Shown here: positions 8,141-52,171 of the stretch, one piece after another
How positions within the stretch are numbered: position 1 is the first letter of the stretch
Layout of the letters: each line of letters starts with the position of its first letter
IMG/VR virus record: IMGVR_UViG_3300046462_000310
Location: 5,737-69,736 of that record
Strand: one strand, 5' to 3'
From: a virus
Length of the DNA: 64,000 bases
Notes under the pieces: generated by a model
Seen by the model: the letters and a program-made list of their open reading frames with translations, nothing else
Told to the model about the DNA's origin: nothing
Database searches by the model: none
Program-made: the position numbers and the translations under genes

Positions 8141-8252
8141 GCTCTTTTTCCTTAGCCCTCTCCGCGTTTTCCTGTGTCAGGGTGACGGTGTAAGCCGCTT
8201 TTCCTTCAGGCTTTCGGCCAGCTCCCTCTCGTTTACCGCCTCTCTTTTTCAT
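8085..8252 (-). CDS. 55-aa RHH protein with a basic GGKREGAGRKP N-terminus (not in the ORF track)
   Basis: Hand translation: MKKRGGKREGAGRKPEGKAAYTVTLTQENAERAKEKEPNFSGLLDRLLASWLRRN. Confidence 0.6.
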   Translation of the reverse strand: MKKRGGKREGAGRKPEGKAAYTVTLTQENAERAKEKEPNFSGLLDRLLASWLRRN

Positions 8253-8276
8253 TTGAAACAATACGTATCTTTTCTA

Positions 8277-8318
8277 TTGACTAAGATTGAATCTATACGT
8301 ATTCTTTCAACCAGTCAA
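8277..8318. promoter_or_regulatory. Overlapping divergent sigma70 promoters
   Basis: Plus strand TTGACT-17-TATTCT (8277-8305); minus strand TTGACT-17-TAGATT; internal dyad AGATTGAATCT. Confidence 0.7.
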
Positions 8319-8327
8319 GAAACACGT

Positions 8328-9191
8328 ATGGCAAATAAAAGACTCTCTAAAGATAAGCAGGCTTTAGTTTTGGCTGCGCTGTGCGAAGGCACGCCAATCC
8401 GCGCGTGTGCACGCATGTTCAAGACTAGCAAGAACGCTATCAAGCGTGTCATTCGCGAAACCGGAGAGGCCTTCGCGGATTACATGGACAAGGAATTTCG
8501 CGATCTTCCATGCAGCCGAATCGAGATGGATGAGCAATGGCAATATGTCGGCGCTCACGGAAGCAGGCTAATTAAGCCTGAGTCCGAACGCGGCGATTTC
8601 TGGCTATGGTGCTGCATCGACGCTGACACAAAGCTTGTCTTTTCGCATCGTGTCGGAAAGCGCGATTGGTGGACAGGAAACCAGTTTGTGGAGGATGTTC
8701 GCAATCGCGTGAGGCTTCCCGTCCAGATCGCGACCGACAATCACAGGCCATACGCTTTTCATATCCGGCAGCACTTCGGGTATGAGGGGTACGCTTACGG
8801 AACAGAAACAAAGATATTCGGCGCGCCGAAACTGACCGATGGCACGCTGGCACGTCTTGGACGCAATGAAGGCGTTCGCAAGATGGAGACAGCGGAGCGC
8901 AAGGTTGTAATAGGCGCGCCGGACTTAGAAAGCCTCACTACGAGTCATATAGAGCGGGCATTTCTGACCGTGCGGCAAGAGCTCAAGCGATTTGAACGCA
9001 AGGGTCTTGGCTACAGCAAGAGCCTCGAAATGCACAAGCTGGCCGTGGCGCTCCACTTTGGCGTCTACAACTTCGTTCGAAAACATCACACGCTAGGGAC
9101 AACGCCAGCAGTCGCGGCAGGGCTTGAAGAGAAGCCGTGGAGTTTAGAACAGGTCATTGAAATGACGGCGGCTTACTGGGCGACCAGATGA
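8328..9191 (+). mobile_element. IS1-family DDE transposase (287 aa); no terminal inverted repeats identified
   Basis: N-terminal HTH, EMDEQW, WLWCCIDA, IATD, HIER, YNFVRKH...TPAVAAG. Confidence 0.85.
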
Positions 9192-9995
9192 ATCGGACCC
9201 AACACCAAAAAAACCAACACACGCCCGGGCCGTGGACATCGGCGCAACAAGATACTGGTAAAGTAGCAATCTTTTCGGATTGCGAATATCACCAACGAAT
9301 CTGCGAAATGGACGACTTCACGATCGGCATGGGGCCGATGAGTGAAGGCAAAAAAACCGGAGATTTTGGAAATCGTCCAACTGGAACATGGGGACATGAA
9401 GCGGACACTGATCGACGCGCCGCAAACGCCCGCCTGATCGCTGCTGCGCCAGAGTTACTACGCGCCTGCCAGTCCGCACTGGCATACTTGGGCGAGCCAC
9501 CGTTCAGTAAGCGAAGCAAGTTCAAAAGCAATAGGCTGGCCGCGCTCAATATAATTCAGAACGCAGTCAAACTCACAACGCCACCGAAGGAGGACGCATG
9601 ACAAACTCACCGGACATCAAAGCTCTCCGTGTTAAAACCGAAACGATCAAAAGATACTACGTCGAATATCCGGGCGGAGACATTTACGGCGGACCCTTCG
9701 ACACGAAGGAAGAGGCCAAAGAGTGCCTAAAGCAGGCTCGGGAAATCGACGCTCAACACCCAATCCAATGAGCGATACCCGAACGCTATCTGACAAGGTG
9801 ATGCAGGCCAAAGCAGAGGTCTTGCGACGAATCAAGTGCCCGTTATGCGAGCAATCAGTTAGAGTCAGGCGAGAAGCAACCGGTTACACCTACATCGATC
9901 GGCACTTTATCAGACGATCAAAACTCTCCAGGAGCTTCGGAACGAATTGGAACAAACCAGTTCTTTGCCAGCGTAGCTTCGACCCTCAGCCTTAA
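9188..9995 (+). CDS. Three coupled small phage-type genes (9188-9601, 9598-9771, 9768-9995)
   Basis: HTPGPW...ANARLIAAAPELL motif; GPFDTKEEA motif; CPLC Zn-finger; ATGA overlaps. Confidence 0.6.
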
Positions 9996-10582
9996 AGCCC
10001 AATCGCCTTGAGCGAAACAACGTGGTTATTCACGAGCCACGATAGCGCGGTAATCGCGCCGACCTGCTTACTCTCCGCCGTCGCGCTGTAATCCCCATCC
10101 CCGACAAATTTCCCCTTGTCGTAGAGATTCGAGAAGCTCCATAGATACGGAGAATTGATCGGGTGCTGCAGTTTCCTGTAGCCCCAGCCGTTGTAACCTT
10201 CGATCTTGAAACAGATCCCAGCGAGACTCCAATCGTGCCAGGTCGTGAAGTTGTCGTATTCCAGCGCGTCGATCGCGCTTACTACCCAGCTAAATGGCGG
10301 CTCGCCTTTCACTGGCCGGCCACGCGGCACGTTTACTGTCCGATGTGACAGCGGATCGCCATTGTGCAAATGCGTCTTGAAACTGAAGCTGCCCTCGAGG
10401 CCGTGCAGGAGTCCCACGACGAACCAAGGGACGCCGGTAATTCCTTCGACCTGCCGGTATTGATCGTAGCCTTCGCGCAGCTTGGAGCAGAAATGCTCGA
10501 CTTCCTCTTCCCATTCAGGCCCGATCTTGCACTCTTGGAATAGGCGCTCGTATTCGGCGCGGAGTTCGTCGGTTAGATTCAT
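9992..10582 (-). CDS. Endolysin, lysozyme-like (COG5526 type)
   Basis: VPWFVVGLLHGLE, HLHNGDPL, EGYNGWGY, SPYLWS, GKFVGDG. Confidence 0.85.
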   Translation of the reverse strand: MNLTDELRAEYERLFQECKIGPEWEEEVEHFCSKLREGYDQYRQVEGITGVPWFVVGLLHGLEGSFSFKTHLHNGDPLSHRTVNVPRGRPVKGEPPFSWVVSAIDALEYDNFTTWHDWSLAGICFKIEGYNGWGYRKLQHPINSPYLWSFSNLYDKGKFVGDGDYSATAESKQVGAITALSWLVNNHVVSLKAIGL

Positions 10583-10721
10583 GTGTGCCTCACTTCATCG
10601 TTCTCCGATGGGAAAGAAAAGGGTGCTTTCGGTGGCGGACTGATCACGTAGCAACACTCGCGCATGAATAGAGTGAGAGCGGTGACGGAGATCACGATCA
10701 ATGCGACTTGCGCGACTTCTT

Positions 10722-11036
10722 TCACGGCCCGCGCTCCGATGATTTCATGTCGATGAATTTCTCGACAATCTCATACGTTACCCGGTAGTGATCTCCCTCT
10801 GGATTAATGGCGGAATCGCCTGGGAACGTCTGCTTAAACTCGGTCTCCAACGCGCGATATTTGTCCAGCCAGTTTCGTGTCACTTGGCAGCCATCTTTGT
10901 CGCAATCGATAATTCCGGCGGTTTGTTCGTTGTTGTCGAAAGCGATAGCTGTTGCCACGACCGGCTTCGGCGCCACCGTCATTTGAGAGCAGCTAATTAC
11001 CGAAACTGCGACAACCAGTAGAAATTGGTATTTCAC
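10722..11036 (-). CDS. Lipoprotein, o-spanin candidate
   Basis: Signal peptide with lipobox VISC; lies in the lysis cassette. Confidence 0.55.
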   Translation of the reverse strand: MKYQFLLVVAVSVISCSQMTVAPKPVVATAIAFDNNEQTAGIIDCDKDGCQVTRNWLDKYRALETEFKQTFPGDSAINPEGDHYRVTYEIVEKFIDMKSSERGP

Positions 11037-11254
11037 GATCCAGCCAGTCTTAGTGCCCTGAGCGCGTCCGCGTGTTGCGCCGGCGTCGAGTTTGGATTTG
11101 CAGTGACCGCCTCCGCGTTACGGATGGCGTCTTTCGCCTGTTGCTTGGCGATGTCCAATTTGTTCTTAACCATCACTGGATTATTCCAGATTGCGCGTTC
11201 CTGGCGCCACGTAGCCAGAGCGGCCGAGATCACTGCTAAGATGGCCGTAATCAC
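11033..11254 (-). CDS. i-spanin candidate
   Basis: N-terminal TM segment plus short coiled coil. Confidence 0.5.
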   Translation of the reverse strand: MITAILAVISAALATWRQERAIWNNPVMVKNKLDIAKQQAKDAIRNAEAVTANPNSTPAQHADALRALRLAGS

Positions 11255-11406
11255 GGCGCAATGCTCTCTATTGTGGCGCGTATCTCGACAGGGCGAGAAT
11301 TAGCGTTGCGATTGGAATCAGGATGGGCAAGCGCGCGGGCCAGATCATGCTCGAAATGGCTAAGGCGCATACACAGATGGTTAGGAATGTTTGGACTGTC
11401 ATATTG

Positions 11407-11805
11407 TTAGAACCCCGCGTTAAGTAAACCCGTGGCCACCGCTCGAACGTAAGAAAGCGTGGTCCCGTTATTCGTTCCCCACTTCTGAATCGCAGAATTG
11501 ACAAAACTCACTCCCGCGGCGATCAGCGCGTCCGCCTCAACATTGCCAGTATGCGGAATCAATGCCACGAGCTGTGACGGATCCAGATTGCCAGCTTGCT
11601 GTAGATCGAGGGCAAACTTGTGAATCTGTATCAGAACGTTCTGGTCGGTGATACGAGTCTTGGAGATCGCGCCCAGCGCGGTCACGTCGGCCTGAACCTG
11701 GGCAGGAGCGCCGAGTGTTTTGATAAAAGATTGCGTATTCGCGCAACCAGCGAAAGAGGCTGCGATAGTGACTACAGCGAGGATTGATAATGTGAATCGT
11801 TTCAT
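11407..11805 (-). CDS. Lipoprotein
   Basis: MKRF...FAGC lipobox. Confidence 0.65.
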   Translation of the reverse strand: MKRFTLSILAVVTIAASFAGCANTQSFIKTLGAPAQVQADVTALGAISKTRITDQNVLIQIHKFALDLQQAGNLDPSQLVALIPHTGNVEADALIAAGVSFVNSAIQKWGTNNGTTLSYVRAVATGLLNAGF

Positions 11806-38253: not shown

Positions 38254-38766
38254 TTAGTGATGCCACTTCGCCGCGTAATCCAGTAAGCGTGTAATTCTTT
38301 CGGGGTTTTCTTCCATTAAGCCTAATGCGGTGTTGCATCTAGCGCATAGTAATCCTCGTATTTCCCCCGAGCGATGGTTATGGTCAACGGCTAGTCGCCT
38401 TCCTGATTTGCATCGCTCCTTGCAAACGGCGCATGAATGATTTTGAGCTTTCAGGAGCGCGTCGTATCCATCGACCGTTAATCCGTGACTCCACATCAGG
38501 CTACGTTTCCGGGATGCTTCTTTATTGTTTCGGTTCGGCCTAATTTTATCGTAATGGTGCTGGCATAAGCCATGTGCCTTAGACCTATTCTTGCAACCGC
38601 GCTTTATGCAAAGGCGTTCTTCTTTTGCCCACTGCCTCAACACCGTAAGATCGGAACCATGTTCTATCTGTCTCCGATGACCAGAGCAGTACAATAGGCG
38701 TTGCTTTCTCAGATTTTTACATCCTGGGAATTTACAAAAAAGCTGACCAAGTTCTACTTGTTCCAT
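38254..38766 (-). CDS. Endonuclease VII-family HNH nuclease with N-terminal Zn fingers
   Basis: CAVC...LAVDHNH...RGLLCARCNTALG. Confidence 0.85.
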   Translation of the reverse strand: MEQVELGQLFCKFPGCKNLRKQRLLYCSGHRRQIEHGSDLTVLRQWAKEERLCIKRGCKNRSKAHGLCQHHYDKIRPNRNNKEASRKRSLMWSHGLTVDGYDALLKAQNHSCAVCKERCKSGRRLAVDHNHRSGEIRGLLCARCNTALGLMEENPERITRLLDYAAKWHH

Positions 38767-39059
38767 TGCTTGGCGTTCGCAGCAAACGTAGCACGCTTGC
38801 GCGTCAACGGATTCGGACTGTTTTTCAATTCCGCCGTGGTCTTGCCGGTCCGCGCCTTGAGCGCATTGAACTTGCCTTTGTTCGCTGGGTTGATGTGGAT
38901 CCCACCTTTTCTATTTCTCGGCAGTGTGTCCACCCCTCTTTTGGGCTGATCATCTTCGTCGTTATCGTTAATCATTTTCTTGCCTCCTTTCCATAGTTTA
39001 TGAATGTCGTCTGGTAAAAATTGCGCTGGTGGCGCACCTATTACGCTGCTTGCTTCCAT
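38754..39059 (-). CDS. Small basic phage protein (true start probably near 38974)
   Basis: IHINPANKGKF...KRATFAANAKQW motif. Confidence 0.55.
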   Translation of the reverse strand: MEASSVIGAPPAQFLPDDIHKLWKGGKKMINDNDEDDQPKRGVDTLPRNRKGGIHINPANKGKFNALKARTGKTTAELKNSPNPLTRKRATFAANAKQWNK

Positions 39060-42000
39060 TGCTTCACGATGTTTACACGGTTCGCCTGCGGTGTCGAACC
39101 TTTCGGAAACATCTCGCGCTTGATTTGCTCCGTAGCTTGAGTGTGTAGTTTCTCGATCAGTTTTACGTCTTCCTCAGTGGGTTTGGCGATCTGTTGAGAT
39201 GTGAACCGTCCGGTTAAAAGTTGGTCGAACCGTTTGCCGGCCGCGATCTGATACTTGGTCGATTGCGCAGGCGTCATCTGCTGCGTCTTCCCATGAATAT
39301 CTTGGTATGTCGTTCCGGGCTCGGTAACGGCCTTTTGGTCTCGTGGGTGACTATTATTCCAATGAATCAGGAGGCGATCTGCCTTTTTGAGTTCATCGTA
39401 CGGATGAATAGCGGCCATCGTGAACATTCGGGTGAACCAGTTCCCCGTCTTTTTAACAGGGTTTCCGTACACGTCGATCTTCGGCTGCCGCAGACTCGGC
39501 ATCGGCAAGAGATTGTATGCGAGATTCGAGTGTTTGGCGTCAGGGACGAAATCATCGTAGTTGCGCAACGGTTGACGGATTAGATTCGGCACCAGCCAGT
39601 TCAGGAACAGGTGAGGCACGGCCTGTGTCACCGGGGTTTCACCCGAGAACATCTTCGAGAGACCGTCCAGGTTCATCAGGAAACTCTTCTCGTCTGTCTG
39701 GGCGAGCAGATAACCGGCTAACGCGTCCACGGCTTCCCGCGGCCCCAGTTCGCCCTTGAGGAGATGCTTCGTGTTGATCAACGTGTCAGCCACGGTCCCT
39801 AGTATCGTCGCCGCCGGTTCGTATTTTCCGTAATTGAAATTTACCCCGTTGCGGCCACCTATCCTAATCACGTAAGGACCGCCATACGCCCGCTGTTGTA
39901 GTTCTCTCACGCCTTTCTTGAGTTGCGTGTAAGGCGTCGAACCTGTGATTAAAACGTGCTTATCGTCGTCGTCACTGTCGCCAGCTATAATTCGCCAAAT
40001 GATTGCGCCAACGGCCAGTGCCGCTATCGACTTGGCGATGTCTCGGATCTGTTGCGGTTGCGAGTAGTTAGATTGAAACTTTTCGCCGTTCCAATTAAAA
40101 AAGCCTTCGCCGGCGTCATACGAAGACTTGGCCGCTTTCGTGAACTTGATCGGAGTAGTAACCGGAGCCGCGACACCGCGCGCAGCGTTTTTCAGGTAAT
40201 TGTATGGAAGCTGCACGAACGGGAAGAAATACCCCCAAGCGTGACTCCGGCTCCTGGTCTGCGCGAACTGCCCTACCGCGTTGTCTATCCAGTTGCCCTT
40301 AATTCCACGAACCCAGTTTCCTTTCGAGTCCTTGAATGGCACGGGTTCTCGTAACGCCATCCACTTAGCGAAATCTGCAGCCTTAATCCATGCCGGGCTG
40401 CCAGGCGTAGCGACAAGCTCGTTCATTCGTTTCGTAAGCGCATCCCCAGAGAGTCCTTCTCGTTTAGCCATCCGGTACGCTACCGGCGTAACTTCCATCA
40501 TCCCGTTCAACGTTTTAATGAATCCGTCCACGAACCACAGAACTCGCGTCGGCATCCTGATGACGCGTCCCCGTACGGGGTTCCAATTCCCGAGATTCTT
40601 CTGTAGCGCGTCCTCGACAGGTTTGGCTTTGTCACCAAAAAACTGTTGCAATGGTCGCTCGGAAATGGACGGACGGTGAAAGGTTTGCTCCGCGTTAAGT
40701 TCGCCTGGGTACAGTTCGGACTGACTGTTTAGAACCTCTTGATCGAATATGTCACTCTCTGTGGACCATTGACGGGCGCCTACTCGCAACGCTCGGGCCA
40801 GCGAAGGAACCACTCCCCTGAAGATGTATTTGAACTCCTTGAACGTCGGCGCATCCGAGTTCTGGTACATCGGCATGAGATTAACAAGACTTTCGAGTCC
40901 GCGCATAACGGTGAACTCGAAAGCACTGTTCGCTAGTAAACCAACCTTGTACGTGATGTGCGTGGTAGGACCGGATAGCAGATTTTGGAGTCCCGCTTCG
41001 TAAATCATGTCGGCGCGATTACCGTTAGCCGCCTGAGCTACGCGCGCAATCTTCGCGACATCATCCACGCTCCCGAGATCCGCGCCTTTACGCACCATCA
41101 TCTCTTGATACAGCGGCAATCCAGGCTGCCCGAGCACTCTGCCGGTGTAGGGCGGCTTTTGACCTTCAGGATACGGAACCGGAGCGTTCTCCCGACGCGC
41201 AACATCTTCCGGGGATTCTATCACGGTCCGCGGCACCTTCGGCGGAACGAAAATCTTAGAGCGTTTCCGCTTTGTCACCTTGAATGTCCCTTGATCCTTC
41301 GCGGATACCAATCCCATGCCACGCATGATCTTGCGGGCCTCGGCTAACGCGTCCGCGTCGCTGATCTCCTGAGCGCGAAGTGGCTGCGTTGCCAACATCC
41401 CCTCGAAACTCATATTCTCGACGCGTAGCCCTGCCTTCACCTTGGCAACCAATTCCTTCTCAACCTGGTCGTTAAACTGGTCGATCGTGTCTCTCACGTC
41501 CTTCTCTGTGAGTCCTGTCGCCTTGGCGATCTCTTTCGAGGTTCGCTCCCCACCGATCGCCAGCTTTAAGGCTTTCTGATGCGGCACATCCAGATTTTTG
41601 CGCTGGTTTTCCAGAAATTCTTTCCCTTTCCCGTGCAACTCCCAGCCGCCGCCCATAATGTCTTCGAGTGTCACGCCACCCTTGGAAATGTAGGAAAAGG
41701 CCTTTTCAAGCTGGTCCAGGCGCTCTTTCATGGCGGCATCAAGCATCGCGCGCTTCTTCGCCTTATCGGGCTCACGCTCAATCTCCGCTTCCTTTGCCGG
41801 CGGCAATGTCGAAATCACTTTGGTTAGAAATTCCCGATTCCGTTCCTCGGGCGTCTTATGCGGGTCGAATCCAGCCGCGAGATCCCGCGCGGTCTGTCCA
41901 CGGATGTTCCGATAAGCAAATCCTGCCGCAAACATATTGCGGAGTCCTTCAGGAGAGGTGTCCCGACTCAGATCGGCCAGAAGCGTCTTAGCCGCCATCA

Positions 42001-45000
42001 CTTCGCTGTCACGCAAGGTATCGCCATTCAACCATCGTTGCGCGACTTCTGTGGCCGAGATCGGATTCTTCTCAGCTTCCCGCTGCATTTGGTCCCGCGA
42101 CTTCGGTTTCCAGAGATCAGTGTAATACTGGTCCACCGCGCGCTGCGACGCTTCGCTGGCACCCATCGCCAGGTCAGGACGCCCAATGGTGTAACGCCCG
42201 CGCTCTTCCGCGTTCGACTTATCGAACAAATTCTCAAGCTCATCCGTATTCAGGCTGTCGATTAACTGTTGTAACGGATCCGCGCTGGATTGCGCTTTGA
42301 GTTCGTCCTTAACGTAAGAATCTATGACATTCAGTGCATCACCTGATTCCAGTCCACCCTCGTCACTGGTAAATGTATATCCTTGCTTTTTTGTAAGCGC
42401 CAAGGCCTCATCTCTGTCAACAAACCGGCCTTTGGATGTCGTGTAACCGTACTCCGTTCTGTCATCCTGAGAGATTACGAACCTTGCCGTGCTGTCAGGA
42501 ATGGCGTCCACTAATGCGTCGGCGTGCGTACCCAGTGAGGTAACGACGCGACCGTTAGGTAATTTGACCGCTACCTTTTCAATCCTCTCGTCTTTCGAAA
42601 TCGGCTGACTCAACAAATCACTCACCTTCGTAATGCCCACTTCCCCCAGCTTCCGACGCATCCGTTCCATAGCGGTTGTTGCCAACTTACTCACAGCCTG
42701 CGGGCTCACCCCGATCCCGTCCGCGATTTCCCTAATCGATTTCCCTTCCAAAATGCCGTTGAGCGCAGCCTGCATCCGTTCCGGTAACTGCGTCACTAAT
42801 TCGTTGATCACCTTGCGCCCTTCATCCAGTGCCGCTTCACTGCGCACATCGGACGTGCTGGGAATTAAATCCTTACTTGTCTCGTTCCGGCCCTCGATCG
42901 GCGCCTCAAGCGATCGCGTTTCCTGAATCCGTTTCAACCGGTTCCCGCGATCATACAACCCGCGCAGCTCATTCCGGACCGCCGTGACCGCAAACGGCCG
43001 AAACGCGCCCTTGTCCGGATGGTACGATTCCGCCGCGCGGGCCAACGCAATCCGGGCGTGTTGCTCCAAGTCATCTCGTTCCAGAGGGCCTTTGACGTTC
43101 TCGAAACTACGGGCAATCCTCATAGCTAGTGGTAATTCTTCATTAAATCTCTCCGTAGCTGGAGACGGACCGCCCTCGGGCCGCTGCGTAACTAATGGCT
43201 GTGATCGCAAAGTCTGGACCGCTTCCCTGATCGGCGTTCCCGCCCCGGCCCCCGCGTAGCTTTGCACCGCCTCGTATGCGTGATCTCGGTCCAGGAATCG
43301 CCCATTGGTTGTGGTGAATCCCTCCAGTAATCCAGGGATACTTCCCTCAGACCATCCCCGCCTGCTCACTTTCCCCTCTCGGGCTGCAGCGTACGCCGCA
43401 GATAAGGCGTCATCGTGATATGCCCCCGTGAAAATCTGACCATCCGGAAGCCGCACCGCCGCCGCCGAGATCCGTTCCCCCTCGTTATTGATCGGCTGAC
43501 TCCGCAGAACGTTTAACGCCTGCGTCCGCAACGCCACGCCCTTGCCGGTGCGTTCCTGCTCAATCACATCAAACACTTTCTGCCACGCGGTATCCAGCAC
43601 AGATCGTTCCTCGCCCTCCGGATAGGGTTTGAGATCGAACATCTGGTAGAACTTGTTCTCAACTCCGTGCACTAGGTAATCACTACGACGCCCTTCCGCC
43701 GACAGCTTGTCATGCACGAACGATTCGAACGACCGCGCCCCCATCTCGTGCGGAGTGCTCCAATAATCGCTCGATCGAAAATCATCGATCTTGCGCGACT
43801 CCCTGAAGTAATCCGTCGGACGCGATTTCACTTCCGTTACGCCTTCACTCGCCTTGGCGAGACGTTCTTGCGCGTCAAACATCGATTTCAACTGCCAAAA
43901 GAGTTGCTTGCCGAGGCTGTGATCCGCGCTGGTCGCGAAGCTGCGTCCGAGCACCTCCTTGTAAACCGAGTTCAAATCTTCAATCGCCTGGTAACTCTCT
44001 CGTCCGCCAAACCTGCTCTTCTCGCTCTCGATAAATTTCCGATCTCCAACATCTCCGGCTTCAATCTTCGCCGAGATCGTATCAAACCGTTGCAACTGCT
44101 GTGAAGTAGGCGGCTTCTTCGACCGAGAATAAACGTGATACGTCTCCAGTTGCCGGCGAATATCTTTCAGTGTGCTCGCGACGTGTTCACTCATCCTGTC
44201 GGCGTTCTTTTCCGCCAGTGACTTATCGATCTCGCCTGTGACATTTTTGCGAACCATCGCCTCCATCACGGCTTTAAAGGCGTCCTCCAGTTCAGCGCGA
44301 ACCTTCGTTTTATAACTGAATCCGTGGCTCACGTAGTTACCAGCCTTATTGGCGGAAACCTTGAATGTGCCCTCCGTCGTCTTTTCGGAAGGCGCCTTGG
44401 TGTCCTGTCGCGCCAGATAATGATCGAACGCGTGAAACCACTCATGCGCCGCGCTACCAGCCCCCTTGATCTTCGTCAGGTTTATGACTGCGTAATCCGG
44501 CTCGTAATGAGCGCGAGCGCCTTCCAAACCGTGTCCGCGCGCTCCAAATGCTATCGCCAGTTCGCCGTTCAGTGATAACGCGCGTGGATCTACGCCCAGC
44601 GCATGCGCGAGGTCATACATGGCATCGTAAGCGTGATTGAGTGCCGCCTGTCCTGAACTCCCCATATTCCAGTTACCAAACTCGCCGCCGCGAAACCCAA
44701 ACGCGCTCTGAAACATCCTCGGAGTAACATCGCCGAGCTTCGAAGTCGTAGCGGGTCGATGCGCCGGGCCGGTGCGCTCAATGTGGTCCAGCCACGGTTT
44801 CTCCGGGAAATTGAATTTATGATTGATGATCTCTTCTGGGTTTGTCGCCATGTAGTGCATGGCGTCCTCGCGAGTTGCGAACCCGTCCTTAACGGTTGGA
44901 CGCTTCCGTGGCCCAAGGCTGCGCTGGATGGCATAGTTATCGGTTTCGCCTGAGCGCGCGATATTGCGAACATCGTGGTTCCGCGACACCTCTAGTAACG

Positions 45001-48000
45001 GAATCGCCTTTTCAGCTTCCGCCTTGCTCTGGAACGCTGATCGACTCGCTAACCCGCCATCGCTCAACCCGATCACCCATTCGCCCGGTTTCCGAGCGTC
45101 CTCAAAGACGTGATATTTACGCATCCACGATGGTCTCTCATCCGCTGTCTTGCCTTCGCCTTTCGGACCAGTCTTTTCGGCCAAGTCTTTGCGCGCCCCA
45201 CCAATCTTCTCTCCGAAATCCTGAATCACCGCGTTCGAAGCGCGATGCAATTCCGAACCAGCGACCGGCGATGTCTCAGGAACTCCTAGTGGGAGTTCTT
45301 CCGAGACCGAGGCAGGCTGTTGAGTTTCGCCCGTTTCGGCAACTTTAATCCCTTGCTCGCCTGGTTCCACTCGTCCACGTTGACTCCCTGTTTCTCCAAC
45401 TCCTTCTTGTGGATGTTGAAGTACGCCGCCTGTTTCAGGCTTTTGTATGGCATTTGATTCTCCTCCTGTATTTCTCTCAGCTAACGCGACAGCGTTTCGC
45501 TGTTCACCTGCATCCAACCGATCAAACAAATTCAACTGACCCGGAAATTCTCTATTCGCGAAGCGCGAACGTAATCTCTGGGAGAACAACGTCCCTTGCT
45601 CTTCGCCTTCCGGCATCCTTCCGACAGCACCGCGCTGATCAAACAACCCCTGCTGCGATTGCACCTCGCCGCCTTGAATCGGACCTTCTGTCCATTTCGC
45701 CTTGAATTGCGCAACAGATTGCTGCCCGCGCGTCTCATCGCCAAACATGAGTTTCTGTCCCAGCGCGGACTCGGCCTTGTCGAGTACGCGCCTCTGATTC
45801 TGAGTTAACTTGGCACCGCTCTGCTCCAGTGAGAAAAGTTTCCGGTAAATTTTAGCCCAATCCTGTAGTGATCGCTGCACCGGCTCGGACGTAATTTGAG
45901 GAACTGTGTAAAGCGGAGCCTCACCAGATTCACGAGCGGCAATCTCAGCCTCCATTTTTGATCGTGTAGGCTCATCGGCAGACTGAACCCTCTGTTTGAG
46001 TTCCTCTGTCGTGTATGCTGGGAATGTCCTGCGACGCGTGGCAGACGACTGCGCCACGTTCCAAAGCATCTCCCTATCAGTGTCATTCGTGGTCGTCTTT
46101 TGCGCCTTCAGTATCGCCGCCGCACTCGGTGGCTCCTCATCCCCGAAAAACCGTTGCTGATTCGGATCCCCGTAATCCACAACCGCTTTCACGTATCGCA
46201 TTAGCGGATCCACCACCTGCTTAACGCTTCGAGCGTTCGCTAAAAGCTCTAGTATCCGAGCATCCAACGGATCTGTAGCCACGGCCCTGTGGGCCGTCCC
46301 AAGATCGAATGCTCCTTGCGAAAAATAATCCGATACGTTCCTGACTTCACCCGAGTCCTTCGCCCGTCTGTAATCCAGTAACGTCGTCAACGCGCGTCCC
46401 AGATTCGGTGTAATCGATAATGACGGGTTGATCGTATCCACGTTCACTATCGCCGGACCAACCTTCGATAATCCCGACACCACCTGTCGTATCCCAGGCG
46501 TGTTGATGTTATCCATCAAACTCGATAGTACCCTGTCCACGCCCGGTTGTTCACCGAGTAGATGTGCCAATAGCGCGGCCTGAGCGCGACGCTCAATCTT
46601 GCCGTTGTCCGGCGTACCATCTTCAAATCGGAGCTCTTTAGGAGCCCCAACGGAGTTGTAAAACGCCGTCAAAAATTCGTGATTGAAACTGCCGTCCTCG
46701 TTCGGATTCAACGATTGCGTAAGCGTCGGATCAGAGAACAAATTGCGATCGGATAACGCTGTCTCCGCAATGCTCCGTTGCTCCGTAGCAGCCGTGTTAC
46801 TCGCCTTAACCAATTCCTGTTGGCTGAGACCGCCGCGCTCCGCAGATGTCACGCGGACGAGTGCCACCGGTTCGCCATCTGGAATATCAGTTTTGATCCC
46901 GAGTCGCGCAGCCTCGCCGCGCGCCCACTTATCGTAAATCGCAGCCTTATCCGGATGCGACGCATACATGTCCCGGATCGCCATCGTCCGATTATTCCCA
47001 ACTTCAACGCTGCCATCAGGCGTAGTAATCGGAGCCCCATCATTCAGCGTAGGCGACGCGCCCCAAGCGATTTCCACATTCTCCGGCGTAAGATTCTGTA
47101 TGATCTCCAGCCGTTGCGCAGCGCCAGTCCGTTCCCGGTCAATCCTATCCTGCGCGGCCCCGCGCTCAGTGTTGATGGTAAGCGACTTGATAGGCGCAAG
47201 CGCCCATTTCCCAGAAATCACTTCCGACCCACGGGGATTCTTCGTGCGCCACTCACCCGCCAAAGGAATCGATTGCCCCTTAAACTCAGTAGAGTTTCCT
47301 AATTCAACATTGGGCGTTGGGCGTTGAGTGTTTGGGGTTTCTCCCGCCGTTCCTACGGCTCCAGTTCCTCGATCAGTCTCCCCGCCTCCGTCACGTCCAC
47401 TGCCCACTGGAACAGTTCCAGCCTGAACGCCTCCCGTTGCTCCAGATTCTCTTGTACTTGAATTGTCAGGTGCGGTGGCTCCGGCACCGACGGAAGGATG
47501 AACCTCGGATGTTTTTGTAACTGGGGATTGCTCATCAAAACGACCACGTAGCACGTATGCCAAAAGCTGTTCAGCCGAAACCGGTATTTTTGATTCTTTC
47601 GAGGCCGCAACGGCTTCCTGTATGCGCGACTTCGGCGACCGAACCCCGATTTTCACCGCCGCTTTCGTAGCAGCAACAACCTCTGCCTTCTCCGATTCCT
47701 CTTCAGTTCGACGTTGGGCGTTGGGCGTTGAGCGTTCGGCGTTTGCCGCTAATTCAATTCGGCTCGCTGGTTCAACCGCTCCACCAGAAACTTCCGGGAC
47801 ACCCGTATCTCCTCTTCCAGTTCCGCGAGTCCCTGTAATCTCTCCAGCACCAGCACCCGCTCCTTCGCCTCGTGTCTCCCCAGGAGGACCACGGGCAGTT
47901 TGTTCGGTGGGAACATTGCTTTTAGCTTTGGTTTCACTACTACCCTTTCCAGACTCCATCTGGGCGTGAGCGTCAACCTCTTTTACTTTACTGCGGATAA

Positions 48001-51000
48001 ATTCCTGCGCTTGCCCGACCTGTTTTACTAGATCCTCGTCGGCGCCGGACTTGCGAAGTTGCCCCTGCATATCACGAAAAAACCGGAGCAAAGTCGCAAG
48101 CGCCTTTCGGTTTTCGACGATGAATTGTCGGCTCGACTGCTCCGGTAGAAATTTGTCTTTCAGTCTAATCTTGCGGCCTTTGGCCAGTTGCATGTCGCCC
48201 GCCAGCCAATAGGCCCACATCTCATGCGCAAAATGGTAATCGCTCGAGCCTTCCGATTTATAGAAGGTCCGCATGGCGTCCTGAATCTTTTTCGGGAGCG
48301 ACTGGTAAATCTTAACCAGGTCGATGGGGCCGCGCACTTCGCCCGTCTTCGGATCCCGATTTTCCAACGCCGTAGTGACCGCATGCGTAACTTCGTGCGT
48401 CATAATGTTCGACGTGTGATCGGGGCTGCCCGTGTATTCCGCCGCGTGCCGAATCACGTCAGGAACCGAAATTACGAGTTTCCGTTCCGTAGATAGTAAC
48501 GCGCCACCGCTCTGTTGCCCTTCCAGTGTAAATCCGACACCCTGGAACGCTTTCTGCCAGCGTTCGTATTCCGGCTGCAGCACTTTCGCCACCACGCGCA
48601 CCTGTTTATCTTCCGCTGGCGTGAGCTCTCCGCCCTTCTCCGCCGCGGCGCTGGCCACTGCGCTCTCGACAAAATCATGTGGCTGGACTGCTTCGGTCGG
48701 GCCCGGCACTCGTGTAACATCACGAACCATGCCTTTGCCGGGCTGGATCTCACCTGCGACCTGCGCTTGCGCGGCCTGCTCACTCGGAGCCTGGACTTGT
48801 TTGATCTCCCGTTCACCCTTTGGCCCTTCCACTTCCACCGCAAAAGTCGGTTGCGATTCGGGCTTGAGCGTCTGTTGCCGCTGGGTTTCTTCATCCTTCG
48901 GCAAAATCTGAGCTGTAATCGGAGCAATCTGTTGAACCCGCGCCAGCGCCGCGTCGGTGATAATCGGCTTCGATCCGTCTGGGCCTTTCGCCATCTCCAC
49001 GCGAGCAACGCCGTTCTCGTCTTTGGATAAAACGGCCTTCTTCTCCGCAGCCGTAAGCGCATCCATCGGCTGCCCCTGCGAAATCTTAACGAGACCACGA
49101 AGCGCATCCTGTGTGACCGCATGCTCTTCGGGCGTCTTACCCTCCATCTGTAGGTTGTCGATCTCCTGGTGAGCCTGATCGACGGTCGGACGAGCAGCCG
49201 GTGCTTGCTTTTCCGTTGGACGTTGAACGTTTTCGGGCTGACCTGCGTTCCCCGTGGAACCTTCAACCGTAGCCCCAGTCTCCGGTTTAGGAACCGGCTT
49301 GTATTCCATCCCTAACGACTGCGCGAACGCCGCCACCTTCTCATGCGTAGTGCCTGCTACTTCTGGATCAATGCCACCGAAAAACGCGCGAAACTCCGGA
49401 GAAACACCGTCTTTTTTTGCCTTCGCGATGGATTCCTTGACTAAATCCGCTGTCTCCGGCCTCGCGTTCGCGGCCATACTCGCTGCCCTCTTGAAAGTGT
49501 CACCCAGCCCTTCACCGCTCAGGATTCCCATAATCGCCGCAGCTTGAGCTATAGATTGGAACGTCGGGTAATGAACCTCGTCTGGATTAAGACCGATCGC
49601 GTGCGTAGCCGCATCGAATCCCGGCCTTAACGCAGCCTCGAACGCAACCCCAGCACCAGCACCACTGGCGAGTTTAGTAGCGATGAACTTTACCGCAGCA
49701 CCCGCTCCCTGTTTCTCGGAAATAACGCTGGCTGCCTTAGCAAAACCTTGATACGAAGCGACCGCAGCCGGTCCCATGCCAGCGATCTCGCCGGCCGCCG
49801 CGTATCCTGGTTCCAACTTCGCGCTGCTTTCCAGCGAATTAACCAAGTCGCTGTAATTTGACGCGCGATCCAGTAATGCACCCGCCGCCTTTTGCGTGAT
49901 TGCCGTGCCAGCCAGGAAAGCTATACCGTGCACTAGAGCAGGTAAGGCCACCGCACCCCAGCCGCCGACAGGAGCAGTCAGGCTCGCACCACCAACCGCC
50001 AATTCAGGATCGAACGGAACCACCGCAGCCGAAGCGGCAGCACCACCTTGAAACGCGAGATAAGACTTGATCCCCGTATCTACGAACGCCTTGAGTTTCG
50101 GATTACTGCCGGCGGCATCCATCAACGCCTTATATTCGTCGTCAGCCTTCCGAGCGTCGGCCAAGTGGTCCTTGACGTAATCGGGAGACAACGCGCCATC
50201 GCGCATGGCTTTTATCATCGCTGGTCCAGTGTAGCCACGTTCGAACGACACGGTTCCGGCGTCTTTATCGGTGTGGTAAAGTCCGTCGGGAGTGTTACCT
50301 GATTCCCAATCCTTGCTGATTTCCTTCTCGGCTAATGCCCTCGATGTTGCATCCTTGGCTATTTGCTGAAGTTCTGGGCTTAACGTTGGCTGCCCAGCTC
50401 CGGCCTGGACCTGGTTGAACTTCTCCTGTAGCGCATCCCGCTGCGGAGCTAAAACAGCCTCGTTGTCCTCAAATTGCTGTTGTACCACCGAGTTGCGCTC
50501 GTTCGCCATCTGGTCGTGCGCGTCGATCAACGGTTGCAATTGCGCTTTTCGCTGTTGAACCTCGTCCAGCATCGGATTCAACCGGTTCAATAACGTCTGG
50601 ACCTGCGCTTTCTCGCGAATATCCGTCAAATCACCGATCGATCGACCGCCCAAAATCGTGTTCACCCGGTCCTGCAGCTTGCCAGCGACCTTCTCAAGCG
50701 GGTCGATTTGCGCCTGGGCCGCTTGGATTTCAGCGCGGGCCGGATTTAACCTGTCGTCATACGCCTTAGCGGTCGCATTGAGCGCATCCGAAACGTCATT
50801 GTGCGCCGCGTCCAGCGCATCGCGTTCCTGCATCAGTGGGCCGTAATTCGGGTCGTTCCTGAATTGCGCTTCCTGGTCTTGCTCCTGGCCTACACCCAGT
50901 TGCGCTTTACGGTCCTTTAGTGCTTTCAGGACTGGATCTTGTTCAGGGTCGAGGCCGCGAGCGCCGAGCGCGTCTTCGCGCTGCTGGATTACGCGGTCGA

Positions 51001-52171
51001 AATCTCCTTGCTCTTTCGGAGCTACTTCACTCCATCCCGCGCGGTTAGCATGAGCATCTTTCAACGCCTGGCGTGCACCGGAGAGCTCTTGCGCGACGCG
51101 ACTTTGCGGATTTAGAACCGAATCGCTCTTCGCGCTACCGGGCGAGACTGACGTTCCCGCGGGCGAGTAACCGGCTTCCGTTAGATCCTGAATCTGTTTT
51201 TCGAGTTCAGCCTTTCGGTCTTGAGCGGCTTTCGCGCCTTGCGATAAAGTGCCGCCTACACCAAAAATTCCGACACTATCCTTTTCGTTGAGTTTATCGG
51301 GCGTGATCCCATCGAGTTCCTTTTGTAACGCCTGTATCTGCTGCGCGTTCGCCTGAATGTCCTTAACTCGGGATTGAACATCCGAGAAAGCAGAATTGAC
51401 GTGTTCCCCGAGAGTTTCCTGAACCGCTGCGTGCAATTTTTTGTCCAGCGACAGCTTCGCCTCTTGCGCCGCCGCCTGGATATTTGGATCCTTGCTCTTT
51501 AATCCTTCATCGATTGTCCCTAGCGATTCCCACGGCGAATACTTGTTCTGCTTGAAGAGATGGTTCGGATAATCCGAGTGCGTCCCGATCGGAGCGTTGG
51601 CGTCAGGCTGGACCTGTTTCGGGCCCGAAGGCGTGTATTGCGTCTGTTGCGCTTGCCCTTGCTGGTCGTAGGTCACTGGGCCTTTGCCGGTCTTGTAAAT
51701 GACGTTCCCGTTTTCGTCGCGCTGCGGGACAAGATTCCCGTTCTCATCGCGCTCAGTCAGCACGCGACTCTGGCGAAGCGTATCCGCCGTTTCCGCGTTA
51801 TCGGCCTGTTGCTCGGGCCCAACCGCGGAACCGGCCAATCGTTGCTGGTAACGATAAGTCGATTGCGCGTAGTCATTCCATTTCTCGGCAGGAACAGGGA
51901 CATTGATAACTTGTCCGCGCCGGCCGCGTCGCTGCGTCGGTTGCGGTTCCTTCGGCGGCTCAAGCGTGTCGCCAGGATCTGGAACATCCGTCAGTTCTAC
52001 CGGCTGCGTCTGTGTGGCAGGACGAGCAAGCGGCTGCGCGTCCGCCACGGGATATGCGTTCGCCGGAGCACTCGGAGTGAGTGGTCTGTTTCCTACGCTT
52101 GAATCTACCCTGGCTCCCTGCTGTTGCTCTTCTTGAGGATCTTGGTCATCGGGATACGCCATATCACGCAC
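39041..52171 (-). CDS. Giant polyvalent / internal virion (ejection-type) protein, 4376 aa
   Basis: Coiled coils, hydrophobic segments, zincin HEVTH (about 48390), ParB-like domain (GNNRTMA, about 46990), LPD5-like DFGEKIGGARKD (about 45200), LPD1-like EFGNW/HEWFH/EMGARSFE (43560-44760), sigma70 domain (42640-43155), helical C-terminus. Confidence 0.85.
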   Translation of the reverse strand: MRDMAYPDDQDPQEEQQQGARVDSSVGNRPLTPSAPANAYPVADAQPLARPATQTQPVELTDVPDPGDTLEPPKEPQPTQRRGRRGQVINVPVPAEKWNDYAQSTYRYQQRLAGSAVGPEQQADNAETADTLRQSRVLTERDENGNLVPQRDENGNVIYKTGKGPVTYDQQGQAQQTQYTPSGPKQVQPDANAPIGTHSDYPNHLFKQNKYSPWESLGTIDEGLKSKDPNIQAAAQEAKLSLDKKLHAAVQETLGEHVNSAFSDVQSRVKDIQANAQQIQALQKELDGITPDKLNEKDSVGIFGVGGTLSQGAKAAQDRKAELEKQIQDLTEAGYSPAGTSVSPGSAKSDSVLNPQSRVAQELSGARQALKDAHANRAGWSEVAPKEQGDFDRVIQQREDALGARGLDPEQDPVLKALKDRKAQLGVGQEQDQEAQFRNDPNYGPLMQERDALDAAHNDVSDALNATAKAYDDRLNPARAEIQAAQAQIDPLEKVAGKLQDRVNTILGGRSIGDLTDIREKAQVQTLLNRLNPMLDEVQQRKAQLQPLIDAHDQMANERNSVVQQQFEDNEAVLAPQRDALQEKFNQVQAGAGQPTLSPELQQIAKDATSRALAEKEISKDWESGNTPDGLYHTDKDAGTVSFERGYTGPAMIKAMRDGALSPDYVKDHLADARKADDEYKALMDAAGSNPKLKAFVDTGIKSYLAFQGGAAASAAVVPFDPELAVGGASLTAPVGGWGAVALPALVHGIAFLAGTAITQKAAGALLDRASNYSDLVNSLESSAKLEPGYAAAGEIAGMGPAAVASYQGFAKAASVISEKQGAGAAVKFIATKLASGAGAGVAFEAALRPGFDAATHAIGLNPDEVHYPTFQSIAQAAAIMGILSGEGLGDTFKRAASMAANARPETADLVKESIAKAKKDGVSPEFRAFFGGIDPEVAGTTHEKVAAFAQSLGMEYKPVPKPETGATVEGSTGNAGQPENVQRPTEKQAPAARPTVDQAHQEIDNLQMEGKTPEEHAVTQDALRGLVKISQGQPMDALTAAEKKAVLSKDENGVARVEMAKGPDGSKPIITDAALARVQQIAPITAQILPKDEETQRQQTLKPESQPTFAVEVEGPKGEREIKQVQAPSEQAAQAQVAGEIQPGKGMVRDVTRVPGPTEAVQPHDFVESAVASAAAEKGGELTPAEDKQVRVVAKVLQPEYERWQKAFQGVGFTLEGQQSGGALLSTERKLVISVPDVIRHAAEYTGSPDHTSNIMTHEVTHAVTTALENRDPKTGEVRGPIDLVKIYQSLPKKIQDAMRTFYKSEGSSDYHFAHEMWAYWLAGDMQLAKGRKIRLKDKFLPEQSSRQFIVENRKALATLLRFFRDMQGQLRKSGADEDLVKQVGQAQEFIRSKVKEVDAHAQMESGKGSSETKAKSNVPTEQTARGPPGETRGEGAGAGAGEITGTRGTGRGDTGVPEVSGGAVEPASRIELAANAERSTPNAQRRTEEESEKAEVVAATKAAVKIGVRSPKSRIQEAVAASKESKIPVSAEQLLAYVLRGRFDEQSPVTKTSEVHPSVGAGATAPDNSSTRESGATGGVQAGTVPVGSGRDGGGETDRGTGAVGTAGETPNTQRPTPNVELGNSTEFKGQSIPLAGEWRTKNPRGSEVISGKWALAPIKSLTINTERGAAQDRIDRERTGAAQRLEIIQNLTPENVEIAWGASPTLNDGAPITTPDGSVEVGNNRTMAIRDMYASHPDKAAIYDKWARGEAARLGIKTDIPDGEPVALVRVTSAERGGLSQQELVKASNTAATEQRSIAETALSDRNLFSDPTLTQSLNPNEDGSFNHEFLTAFYNSVGAPKELRFEDGTPDNGKIERRAQAALLAHLLGEQPGVDRVLSSLMDNINTPGIRQVVSGLSKVGPAIVNVDTINPSLSITPNLGRALTTLLDYRRAKDSGEVRNVSDYFSQGAFDLGTAHRAVATDPLDARILELLANARSVKQVVDPLMRYVKAVVDYGDPNQQRFFGDEEPPSAAAILKAQKTTTNDTDREMLWNVAQSSATRRRTFPAYTTEELKQRVQSADEPTRSKMEAEIAARESGEAPLYTVPQITSEPVQRSLQDWAKIYRKLFSLEQSGAKLTQNQRRVLDKAESALGQKLMFGDETRGQQSVAQFKAKWTEGPIQGGEVQSQQGLFDQRGAVGRMPEGEEQGTLFSQRLRSRFANREFPGQLNLFDRLDAGEQRNAVALAERNTGGESNAIQKPETGGVLQHPQEGVGETGSQRGRVEPGEQGIKVAETGETQQPASVSEELPLGVPETSPVAGSELHRASNAVIQDFGEKIGGARKDLAEKTGPKGEGKTADERPSWMRKYHVFEDARKPGEWVIGLSDGGLASRSAFQSKAEAEKAIPLLEVSRNHDVRNIARSGETDNYAIQRSLGPRKRPTVKDGFATREDAMHYMATNPEEIINHKFNFPEKPWLDHIERTGPAHRPATTSKLGDVTPRMFQSAFGFRGGEFGNWNMGSSGQAALNHAYDAMYDLAHALGVDPRALSLNGELAIAFGARGHGLEGARAHYEPDYAVINLTKIKGAGSAAHEWFHAFDHYLARQDTKAPSEKTTEGTFKVSANKAGNYVSHGFSYKTKVRAELEDAFKAVMEAMVRKNVTGEIDKSLAEKNADRMSEHVASTLKDIRRQLETYHVYSRSKKPPTSQQLQRFDTISAKIEAGDVGDRKFIESEKSRFGGRESYQAIEDLNSVYKEVLGRSFATSADHSLGKQLFWQLKSMFDAQERLAKASEGVTEVKSRPTDYFRESRKIDDFRSSDYWSTPHEMGARSFESFVHDKLSAEGRRSDYLVHGVENKFYQMFDLKPYPEGEERSVLDTAWQKVFDVIEQERTGKGVALRTQALNVLRSQPINNEGERISAAAVRLPDGQIFTGAYHDDALSAAYAAAREGKVSRRGWSEGSIPGLLEGFTTTNGRFLDRDHAYEAVQSYAGAGAGTPIREAVQTLRSQPLVTQRPEGGPSPATERFNEELPLAMRIARSFENVKGPLERDDLEQHARIALARAAESYHPDKGAFRPFAVTAVRNELRGLYDRGNRLKRIQETRSLEAPIEGRNETSKDLIPSTSDVRSEAALDEGRKVINELVTQLPERMQAALNGILEGKSIREIADGIGVSPQAVSKLATTAMERMRRKLGEVGITKVSDLLSQPISKDERIEKVAVKLPNGRVVTSLGTHADALVDAIPDSTARFVISQDDRTEYGYTTSKGRFVDRDEALALTKKQGYTFTSDEGGLESGDALNVIDSYVKDELKAQSSADPLQQLIDSLNTDELENLFDKSNAEERGRYTIGRPDLAMGASEASQRAVDQYYTDLWKPKSRDQMQREAEKNPISATEVAQRWLNGDTLRDSEVMAAKTLLADLSRDTSPEGLRNMFAAGFAYRNIRGQTARDLAAGFDPHKTPEERNREFLTKVISTLPPAKEAEIEREPDKAKKRAMLDAAMKERLDQLEKAFSYISKGGVTLEDIMGGGWELHGKGKEFLENQRKNLDVPHQKALKLAIGGERTSKEIAKATGLTEKDVRDTIDQFNDQVEKELVAKVKAGLRVENMSFEGMLATQPLRAQEISDADALAEARKIMRGMGLVSAKDQGTFKVTKRKRSKIFVPPKVPRTVIESPEDVARRENAPVPYPEGQKPPYTGRVLGQPGLPLYQEMMVRKGADLGSVDDVAKIARVAQAANGNRADMIYEAGLQNLLSGPTTHITYKVGLLANSAFEFTVMRGLESLVNLMPMYQNSDAPTFKEFKYIFRGVVPSLARALRVGARQWSTESDIFDQEVLNSQSELYPGELNAEQTFHRPSISERPLQQFFGDKAKPVEDALQKNLGNWNPVRGRVIRMPTRVLWFVDGFIKTLNGMMEVTPVAYRMAKREGLSGDALTKRMNELVATPGSPAWIKAADFAKWMALREPVPFKDSKGNWVRGIKGNWIDNAVGQFAQTRSRSHAWGYFFPFVQLPYNYLKNAARGVAAPVTTPIKFTKAAKSSYDAGEGFFNWNGEKFQSNYSQPQQIRDIAKSIAALAVGAIIWRIIAGDSDDDDKHVLITGSTPYTQLKKGVRELQQRAYGGPYVIRIGGRNGVNFNYGKYEPAATILGTVADTLINTKHLLKGELGPREAVDALAGYLLAQTDEKSFLMNLDGLSKMFSGETPVTQAVPHLFLNWLVPNLIRQPLRNYDDFVPDAKHSNLAYNLLPMPSLRQPKIDVYGNPVKKTGNWFTRMFTMAAIHPYDELKKADRLLIHWNNSHPRDQKAVTEPGTTYQDIHGKTQQMTPAQSTKYQIAAGKRFDQLLTGRFTSQQIAKPTEEDVKLIEKLHTQATEQIKREMFPKGSTPQANRVNIVKQWKQAA
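45286..45453 (-). CDS. Nested 55-aa gene in the +1 frame of the giant ORF
   Basis: AGGAGG SD; MPYKSLKQAAYFNIHKKELEKQGVNVDEWNQASKGLKLPKR...; preceded by a dyad promoter. Confidence 0.7.
   Translation of the reverse strand: MPYKSLKQAAYFNIHKKELEKQGVNVDEWNQASKGLKLPKRAKLNSLPRSRKNSH
45488..45504 (-). promoter_or_regulatory. Internal dyad/promoter for the nested gene
   Basis: GACAGCG-TTT-CGCTGTT; TGAACA-17-TAGCTG. Confidence 0.6.

Follow-up and report, generated by a model that had tools for sequence, protein, structure and literature searches.

In overprinted genes of the phiX174 type (E in D, B in A), nesting is complete and out of frame, both genes lie on the same strand, and the nested frame is young and restricted to its lineage. 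Spanin pairs occur in nested, overlapped and separated form. In phage lambda the Rz1 gene is nested in the +1 frame of Rz, and the segment of Rz that carries it is described as a mutationally silent flexible linker (PMC5295617). The ShiLan element, an insertion in phage DNA methylase genes, hides an out-of-frame HNH homing endonuclease (PMC11855218). Large polyvalent proteins, encoded by phages and by conjugative elements, were defined by Iyer et al. 2017 (PMC5512222). The word "overlap" does not occur in the main text of their paper, the single "embedded" refers to peptidase domains, and no genes nested in linkers are reported there. The subject of the present analysis is a 55-codon open reading frame (ORF), encoding a peptide which begins with MPYKS, nested in the +1 frame of the gene for a large polyvalent protein of 4376 amino acids (aa). 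It is found in a stretch of 64,000 nucleotides (nt), referred to as the window, corresponding to positions 5,737 to 69,736 of the IMG/VR virus record IMGVR_UViG_3300046462_000310. On comparative sequence grounds, which are unusually good, this is a real nested gene; the type of arrangement is known, and the class of host gene is new. It is likely, in our judgement, that the ORF functions as a gene and encodes a small basic protein, and that it is carried by a linker of the polyvalent-protein gene. Neither the MPYKS family nor genes nested in polyvalent-protein genes were described in the literature searched.

Rz1 in Rz is the closest analogue in architecture. In both cases a short gene lies wholly within a longer one, on the same strand, in the +1 frame and with its own start, and no stretch serves both proteins (PMC5295617). 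The host gene is here a polyvalent effector of several thousand codons and not a lysis gene, and its product is not known to pair functionally with the small protein. Moreover, the hosts are much less conserved than the gene nested in them, which turns up between unrelated domains in different host proteins. Like spanins, the small gene occurs in several layouts, being found nested, free-standing and fused. The case differs from phiX174 because the nested frame is widespread and conserved, and the host frame over it is unconstrained. The ShiLan element is similar in that the host frame reads through without stops as a tolerated loop or linker, and the other frame is a separate protein with its own start, missed by annotation (PMC11855218). 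The homing endonuclease explains ShiLan mobility, whereas the 55-aa protein carries no enzymatic signature and belongs to a mostly free-standing family. The host gene of the window belongs to the large polyvalent proteins (PMC5512222), with its LPD1, ddrB-ParB, zincin-like HExxH and sigma-70 domains. Other hosts of nested copies carry GGACT, His_Phos_1, RelA_SpoT and Zeta_toxin modules.

The original prediction, made from the letters of the window alone, placed in the giant gene a minus-strand ORF of 55 codons in the +1 frame, a perfect AGGAGG and a copy of a dyad repeat. All are present, and the translation is identical to the predicted peptide (Table 1). The dyad copy is a perfect ACAGCG-AAA-CGCTGT. 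The starts of the two genes are 52171-45453 = 6718 nt apart, or 3x2239+1, which sets the small ORF in the +1 frame. The giant ORF encloses it entirely, in a geometry of the Rz/Rz1 type. The peptide features 13 Lys and Arg residues versus 4 Asp and Glu; 7 of the former and none of the latter are in the tail. The AGGAGG-N4-9-ATG pattern occurs five times in the window versus 2.28 expected, a number reached in 9 of 100 shuffles. Within the giant gene, a Shine-Dalgarno (SD) match of equal length is found at only 1.2% of the 169 other ATGs.

Table 1. Position of the nested gene, its signals, its host gene and the dyad sites in the window.
Feature	Position	Strand	Remarks
Small nested ORF	45286-45453	minus	55 codons and TAG stop, ATG start; +1 frame of the giant gene
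Shine-Dalgarno AGGAGG	45462-45467	minus	8 nt 5' of the ATG; read as Gly-Gly-Glu codons by the giant frame
Perfect dyad copy	45489-45503	minus	35 nt 5' of the small-ORF ATG, 6.7 kb into the giant ORF
Giant-frame reading over the overlap, aa 2240-2296	45284-45454	minus	Gly/Glu/Gln/Pro-rich linker between domains
Host giant gene, 4376-aa large polyvalent protein	39041-52171	minus	ORF and Pfam domains
Dyad sites (15 nt)	4921, 6352, 12083, 13962, 22927, 30989, 32131		Directional dyad
Dyad sites (15 nt), continued	32868, 38218, 45489, 53661, 54789, 57790, 62228		Directional dyad

A resemblance of the peptide to small phage proteins beginning with MP(Y/F)KS had been proposed in the original prediction, and is borne out by abundant free-standing homologues. 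Out of 557 candidate called proteins of 30-97 aa, 544 match the peptide at E <= 1e-3, with 64-93% identity, and nearly all are denominated hypothetical. At E <= 1e-3 a profile built on 49 members retrieves 618 cluster representatives; at E <= 1e-10 the number is 312. A relative of the peptide is encoded in 120 of 173 pattern-matched viral stretches; 80 of these 120 relatives were examined further, and the counts out of 80 loci refer to them. The core of the family corresponds to the first 40 residues, which are aligned without gaps across 70 distinct ORFs. Invariant columns, in the numbering of the window peptide, are P2, S5, Q8, F12, N13, L19, G23, V24, V26, N30 and G35. Most members are 43-72 aa long, begin at the M of MPYKS, and end with a tail rich in Lys and Arg. 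The window peptide fits this form, and is 62-80% identical to 48 members. At the aligned start position 75 of the 80 loci have ATG and 3 have GTG; in the remaining 2 an ATG is found one codon upstream. Identities of 62-93% across viral contigs with a GC content ranging from 0.30 to 0.62 suggest that the protein acts on a very conserved target.

The family has no Pfam or PHROG model. Pfam searches with the peptide found nothing at E <= 1, and none of the 49 members convincingly matches any Pfam family. The only PHROGs match of the peptide is phrog_2174 (E = 0.27). No tblastn or blastn match was obtained in the 50,697 records of GenBank phages, where a typical family member has only a chance-level match (E = 1). 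DUF3008 (PF11450, cut-off 24 bits), a family of small proteins of similar size and N-terminal motif, beginning with MP.KS, was considered as a possible home of the family and discarded, as neither the peptide nor any of the 49 members match it at E <= 1, and the six-frame translation of the whole record does not at E <= 10. PF11450 is annotated on 15% of the members of a protein-atlas cluster found at a score of 0.87. In two soil/rhizosphere runs, short contigs match only a core of 40 nt (45359-45398), with 6 differences, and have unrelated flanks; other phages with family members therefore co-occur in the same samples.

Annotation was predicted to overlook the nested gene, and the exact peptide is indeed absent from ~15 billion called proteins, as are 7 of the 9 other nested copies tested. 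Gene callers forbid long overlaps on the same strand, which makes the gene invisible to them. In all, 8 of 10 nested copies are absent from this collection.

ORFs in alternative frames are common in a gene of 13 kb, and the nested ORF might be one of them by chance, or mark an element acting at the nucleotide level, such as an RNA structure or a recombination or packaging site. A control is provided by the same giant gene, in which a +1-frame ORF of 127 aa (44590-44973), preceded by an SD-like motif, has no viral relatives. The 120 viral relatives of the 55-aa ORF mark it as more than a chance ORF. A search of Rfam gave nothing at E <= 1, and shuffled sequences fold as well as the hairpin region does. 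Hundreds of free-standing homologues and the protein-coding signatures described below similarly speak against a chance ORF or a nucleotide element, either of which is scarcely credible. A 35-codon ORF starting with GTG (47749-47856, minus strand), also in the +1 frame of the giant gene and with an SD match of 6 nt, is probably a chance ORF.

Selection on the two frames, which the original prediction had proposed to compare by dN/dS, was analysed at codons 2-40 of 17 nested and 53 free distinct ORFs; L055 and L074, in which the start is offset by one codon, were left out. In the register of the overlap, position 3 of the small frame is position 1 of the giant frame, and position 2 of the small frame is position 3 of the giant one. 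Pairwise nucleotide differences at positions 1, 2 and 3 of the small frame are 0.256, 0.174 and 0.369 in nested ORFs, and 0.213, 0.166 and 0.570 in free ORFs. Variability is thus highest at position 3 and lowest at position 2 in nested and free ORFs alike. Therefore the small frame is protein-coding in both sets, the pattern being the opposite of that expected if only the giant frame were selected. The pNN/pSN ratio of the small frame is 0.32 (95% confidence interval 0.22-0.44) in nested ORFs and 0.19 (0.13-0.27) in free ORFs, values which indicate that the small frame, as judged from these alignments, is under purifying selection also when nested. Mean pairwise protein identity is 0.727 for nested and 0.766 for free copies. 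Changes at position 3 are suppressed in nested copies even though their proteins have diverged as much as those of free copies, or more, which is what dual coding should produce.

The giant frame behaves differently. Its pNN/pNS ratio is 1.22 (95% confidence interval 0.87-1.71) in nested copies and 1.10 (0.75-1.80) in free copies. The disordered linker predicted in this frame is supported by composition, as well as by the lack of amino-acid constraint. G, E, Q, P, S and T make up 67% of the residues over the overlap, the 99th percentile of the 57-aa windows of the same protein; no aromatic residue is present, and no Pfam domain is found in the giant frame across aa 2240-2296. The alignment of the 17 giant-frame sequences contains no stretch conserved enough for searching, and a 65-aa giant-frame query finds 1 viral locus versus the 120 found by the small frame.

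Even so, the giant frame is actively kept open across the overlap, against expectation. In the first 40 codons free copies have on average 4.87 stops in this frame, which is open in only 2 of 53; nested copies have none by definition. When small-frame codons were resampled synonymously according to host codon usage, the probability of an open giant frame was 0.0044 for the window, <=0.074 for all 17 loci, and <0.001 for most. Summed over the 17 loci, log10 P is -52.9. The other alternative frame has ~1.4 stops in nested and free sets alike, and is often easier to keep open, as in L006 (0.53 vs 0.0098).

These data bear on the direction of the event. The term overprinted, used in the original prediction, is apt insofar as a genuine out-of-frame nested gene is present, but the conserved frame is the small one, and overprinting more likely proceeded in reverse. 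Since the small frame is conserved, and is also found as a free-standing gene and as an N-terminal domain, and the giant frame is unconstrained, it is more likely that the small gene existed first and came to be overlaid by the linker of the giant protein than that the small gene arose over the linker. The locus offers a clean and repeated case of asymmetric dual coding, in which one frame is informative and the other merely open, with free-standing copies as matched controls. It should serve as a test case for programs that look for overlapping genes, and help to explain how giant polyvalent effector genes are put together from modules.

The nested layout is not restricted to the window. In 16 of the 80 loci, to which the window is to be added, a long frame of 427 to at least 1949 aa covers the entire small ORF. 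Counted from the small ORF, the covering frame is always +2, which is the relation seen in the window. Frame +1 covers the small ORF in two loci only, with short frames of 126 and 64 aa. All the 17 nested copies retain an intact ORF and a start codon. Their hosts are different proteins of polyvalent type; the GC content varies from 0.30 to 0.62, and GGACT, His_Phos_1, RelA_SpoT or Zeta_toxin modules adjoin the overlap. That the same frame is used every time speaks for a common origin of the nested cassette, and the tree is compatible with it. A link of the nested gene to a downstream HExxH peptidase was also considered and dropped, because among the 17 nested loci the motif follows only in the window (+336 aa) and in L040 (+810 aa).

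Sequences flanking the overlap vary. The giant protein of the window has matches in 7 of the 80 loci, confined to aa 2219-2323 and mostly to the overlap itself, the flanks being unrelated. L012 and L034 are similar upstream of the overlap (64% identity) and not downstream; L032 and L034 are similar downstream (46%). The GGACT module is located upstream of the overlap in L002 and downstream in L049, and the flanks of the window match no locus. This patchy sharing indicates that the cassette sits at junctions of domain shuffling. Mosaic flanks (L012, L034, L032, L002, L049), and the recurrence of the same cassette in the same relative frame between unrelated domains, are also what a selfish or mobile cassette would leave, that is a dual-coding segment of ~170 bp inserting into linkers of polyvalent genes, with the small protein serving its spread. 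The ShiLan element offers a precedent (PMC11855218). A helical core of ~40 aa lacking nuclease, recombinase or other Pfam signatures is however unlikely to catalyse mobility, and 64 of the 80 loci are ordinary free-standing genes that stand in a set position behind runs of large genes. Mosaic flanks are accounted for just as well by ordinary homologous recombination where a sequence is conserved, and a mobile cassette is thus improbable. A comparison with an empty site was not available, since G001, a dyad-bearing relative with a giant frame of 3512 aa, hosts no copy of the small gene and is only 26% identical over the ParB region.

The nucleotides of the nested gene hardly change between very different phages, and for this reason the dual-coding cassette of ~170 bp might work as a homology patch, or portable junction, for swaps of effector domains in polyvalent-protein genes. 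It would also supply each such gene with one and the same independently made partner protein, acting with ejected cargo. This reading is unlikely; if true, it would explain why the small gene is always located in or next to genes for large virion-delivered proteins, whether nested, fused at the N-terminus of other proteins, or directly downstream of a cargo block with a crAss-type muzzle gene.

Initiation signals have been evaluated by comparing each nested ATG with all the others in the giant gene that contains it. Of the 17 nested ATGs, 6 are preceded by an SD match of 5-8 nt, which ranks in the top 0-7.3%; the match in the window is 6 nt long, and in the top 1.2%. A-rich leaders, with 60-75% A in the 20 nt upstream, are found at 7 of the 17 loci, all in AT-rich hosts, and rank in the top 0-4%. 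A-rich leaders are the signature of SD-less initiation in Bacteroidota-type hosts. Overall, 13 of the 17 nested ATGs feature unusually strong initiation signals, and the type of signal tracks the likely host, as expected of a translated gene.

In the remaining 64 loci the small gene is free-standing. It is 43-86 aa long in all except L039, where it is part of a 231-aa N-terminal fusion. In the four free-standing records looked at closely, the small gene comes after a large gene (879 to 1482 aa), and in three of them (L113/G003, 6968-11752 and neighbours; L110; L111) it closes a series of same-strand genes with products of 424 to 1942 aa. Five neighbours of this kind were scanned, and one encodes a crassvirus muzzle C-terminal domain (34.5 bits vs a cut-off of 27). 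The small gene thus stands next to a block of genes for virion-delivered cargo, and some carriers of free-standing copies look crAss-like. Genes flanking free-standing copies have no Pfam match and only two PHROG matches, a weak one to a tape-measure family and one to a family of unknown function, and none of them resembles the window. Inverted terminal repeats were noticed in 2 of the 4 records.

In the third layout the small module is fused to other sequences. Among the 150 best profile matches, 56 are proteins of 140-1022 aa, in which the module is nearly always located at residues 1-50. The remaining parts of these proteins form 17 clusters, and one C-terminal cluster is common to 29 of the 56. 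An HExxH motif is present in 9 of the 49 fused proteins of at least 200 aa. In some fused members, including P0153, P0172, P0176 and P0211, a Lys-rich linker comes after the N-terminal module, and then repeated Gly-rich hydrophobic segments with acidic loops. These segments look like membrane hairpins, and some of the proteins that feature them carry HExxH too.

Such N-terminal fusions could be mimicked by the window gene if ribosomes starting at the nested ATG slipped by -1 into the giant frame, so that the module would head the C-terminal half of the giant protein. The small frame is +1 relative to the giant one, and a -1 slip would indeed rejoin it. No X_XXY_YYZ heptamer is however found in the window ORF; heptamers occur in 7 of 17 nested versus 17 of 53 free ORFs, are not enriched, and vary in position. 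Nested ORFs, moreover, end in Lys-rich tails like the free-standing ones, and a frameshift product is very improbable.

Several observations weigh against a functional, deeply nested gene. No RNA run carrying this DNA was found; the stretch is carried with zero differences by contigs of three DNA runs, one of which is possibly its source. Four of the 17 nested loci (L011, L040, L045, L065) lack an outstanding initiation signal. In L035, L053 and L065 the long frame opens just 45-50 codons upstream of the small ORF, and these may be overlaps at the 5' end. Nested copies cluster on the tree, with 2 label changes versus 15.3 in shuffles (123 columns, themselves subject to dual-coding constraint), and therefore are not 17 independent events. 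As to the giant frame, no amino-acid constraint is detectable, so that selection on both frames is argued only from the purging of stops and the suppression of synonymous change. Since an open frame defines the nested class, its lack of stops is circular, and the synonymous resampling is the only independent measure. Finally, the AlphaFold2 (AF2) model of the peptide, based on a 49-row alignment, consists of three short helices and is weak (mean pLDDT 64.5), and Foldseek found no match for it in PDB.

Some of these points would suit a fossil, namely a free-standing gene swallowed by gene fusion and now reduced to mere linker DNA, in which ORF, ATG and SD linger because too little time has passed. 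A fossil requires of the giant frame only an open spacer, and accords with the failure to find an RNA run carrying this DNA and with the clustering of nested copies, which could share one recent capture. Nested proteins are nevertheless as divergent as free ones (0.727 vs 0.766), and still have a pNN/pSN of 0.32 with an upper limit of 0.44. All 17 ORFs are intact and have a start codon in hosts with a GC content of 0.30-0.62, and 13 retain strong initiation signals suited to the host type. A fossil is hence quite improbable.

According to the preferred reading, that of a functional nested gene, ribosomes would start independently at the AGGAGG and ATG (45453) found inside the giant coding sequence. 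The message would be either the mRNA of the giant gene, or a shorter transcript tied to the upstream dyad. The product would be a small protein with a helical core of ~40 aa starting from MPYKS, followed by the Lys/Arg-rich tail. The giant protein would read the overlap as a spacer, and its frame would need only to remain open and hydrophilic, all information residing in the small frame. As to origin, a small gene located beside genes for large virion-delivered proteins may have been absorbed into a fused polyvalent gene, and may have then spread through domain shuffling. A helical core, a Lys/Arg tail and the constant company of large virion-delivered proteins hint at a nucleic-acid-binding or adaptor protein which acts with ejected cargo or polyvalent proteins, a function that we propose tentatively and regard as doubtful.

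The dyad preceding the nested gene is one of many in the window. The 15-nt motif ACAGCG-AAA-CGCTGT has 26 strand-matches with up to 3 mismatches versus 2.52 expected, and none of 100 shuffles reaches this number; counted as sites, there are ~14 versus ~1-2 expected. Three copies are perfect, including the one before the nested gene. At six sites the dyad is extended to TTGACAGCGRAACGCTGTC. The central triplet is in most cases purine-rich on the sense strand of the next gene. Eight of the 11 minus-oriented dyads are followed by an ORF of 44-368 aa with an ATG 8-24 nt downstream, usually without SD. At least 7 dyads are found in ~33 kb (L099, L100, L102, L109) of the distant relative that has a 3512-aa giant frame and lacks the small gene. 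The dyad is a real directional motif located near gene starts, and the copy before the nested gene very likely singles out this gene as one of the units that the phage itself regulates.

The original prediction went further, and assigned to the nested gene its own dyad promoter. The motif is real and lies near gene starts, but several features speak against a simple promoter. A consensus scan of the 44900-45900 region (-35 and -10 hexamers at a 16-18 nt spacing) found no promoter-like site of the sigma-70 type. The dyad copy of the nested gene reads GTGAACA where 6 other copies have TTGACA, and two dyad copies elsewhere are only 8-9 nt from the ATG, a poor fit to a -35 element. The dyad hairpin at the nested gene is not unusually stable (z = -0.29). 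The dyad may be a promoter element, an operator or an RNA hairpin. Dyads could mark leaderless or short-leader transcripts, or else represent a hairpin involved in translation or RNA processing.

The record that includes the window is a contig of 69.7 kb from an uncultivated soil or rhizosphere phage, with terminase, portal, major-head and tail-fibre genes. The product of the giant gene is a large polyvalent protein, in which LPD1 is joined to several unrelated effector and DNA-binding domains in a very large chain. Pfam domains above cut-off are ddrB-ParB at aa 1656-1773 (47.9 bits), LPD1 at aa 2798-2873 (66.1 bits), and sigma-70 regions 2 and 4 at aa 3010-3172 (Sigma70_r2, 34.7 bits; Sigma70_r4_2, 28.0 bits). 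These domains flank the overlap on either side, all in one frame. Zincin-like HExxH motifs are found at aa 1259 and 2576. The sigma domain (42656-43144, minus strand) includes regions 2 and 4 only, a layout similar to that of extracytoplasmic function (ECF) sigma factors, here set in a polyvalent protein. If delivered by the virion, this domain could read the dyad-marked sites of the phage.

Two other ORFs deserve mention. A 544-aa ORF (7557-9191, plus strand), located on the strand opposite to most genes, is similar to the transposase-like phrog_720 over aa 462-497 (E = 6.6e-10). A second AGGAGG-N7-ATG is found at 38973-38988 (minus strand), 84 nt inside ORF 38754-39059 and in the frame of this ORF. 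The true start of ORF 38754-39059 may be at 38975, in which case the two genes would no longer overlap at the end of the giant one.

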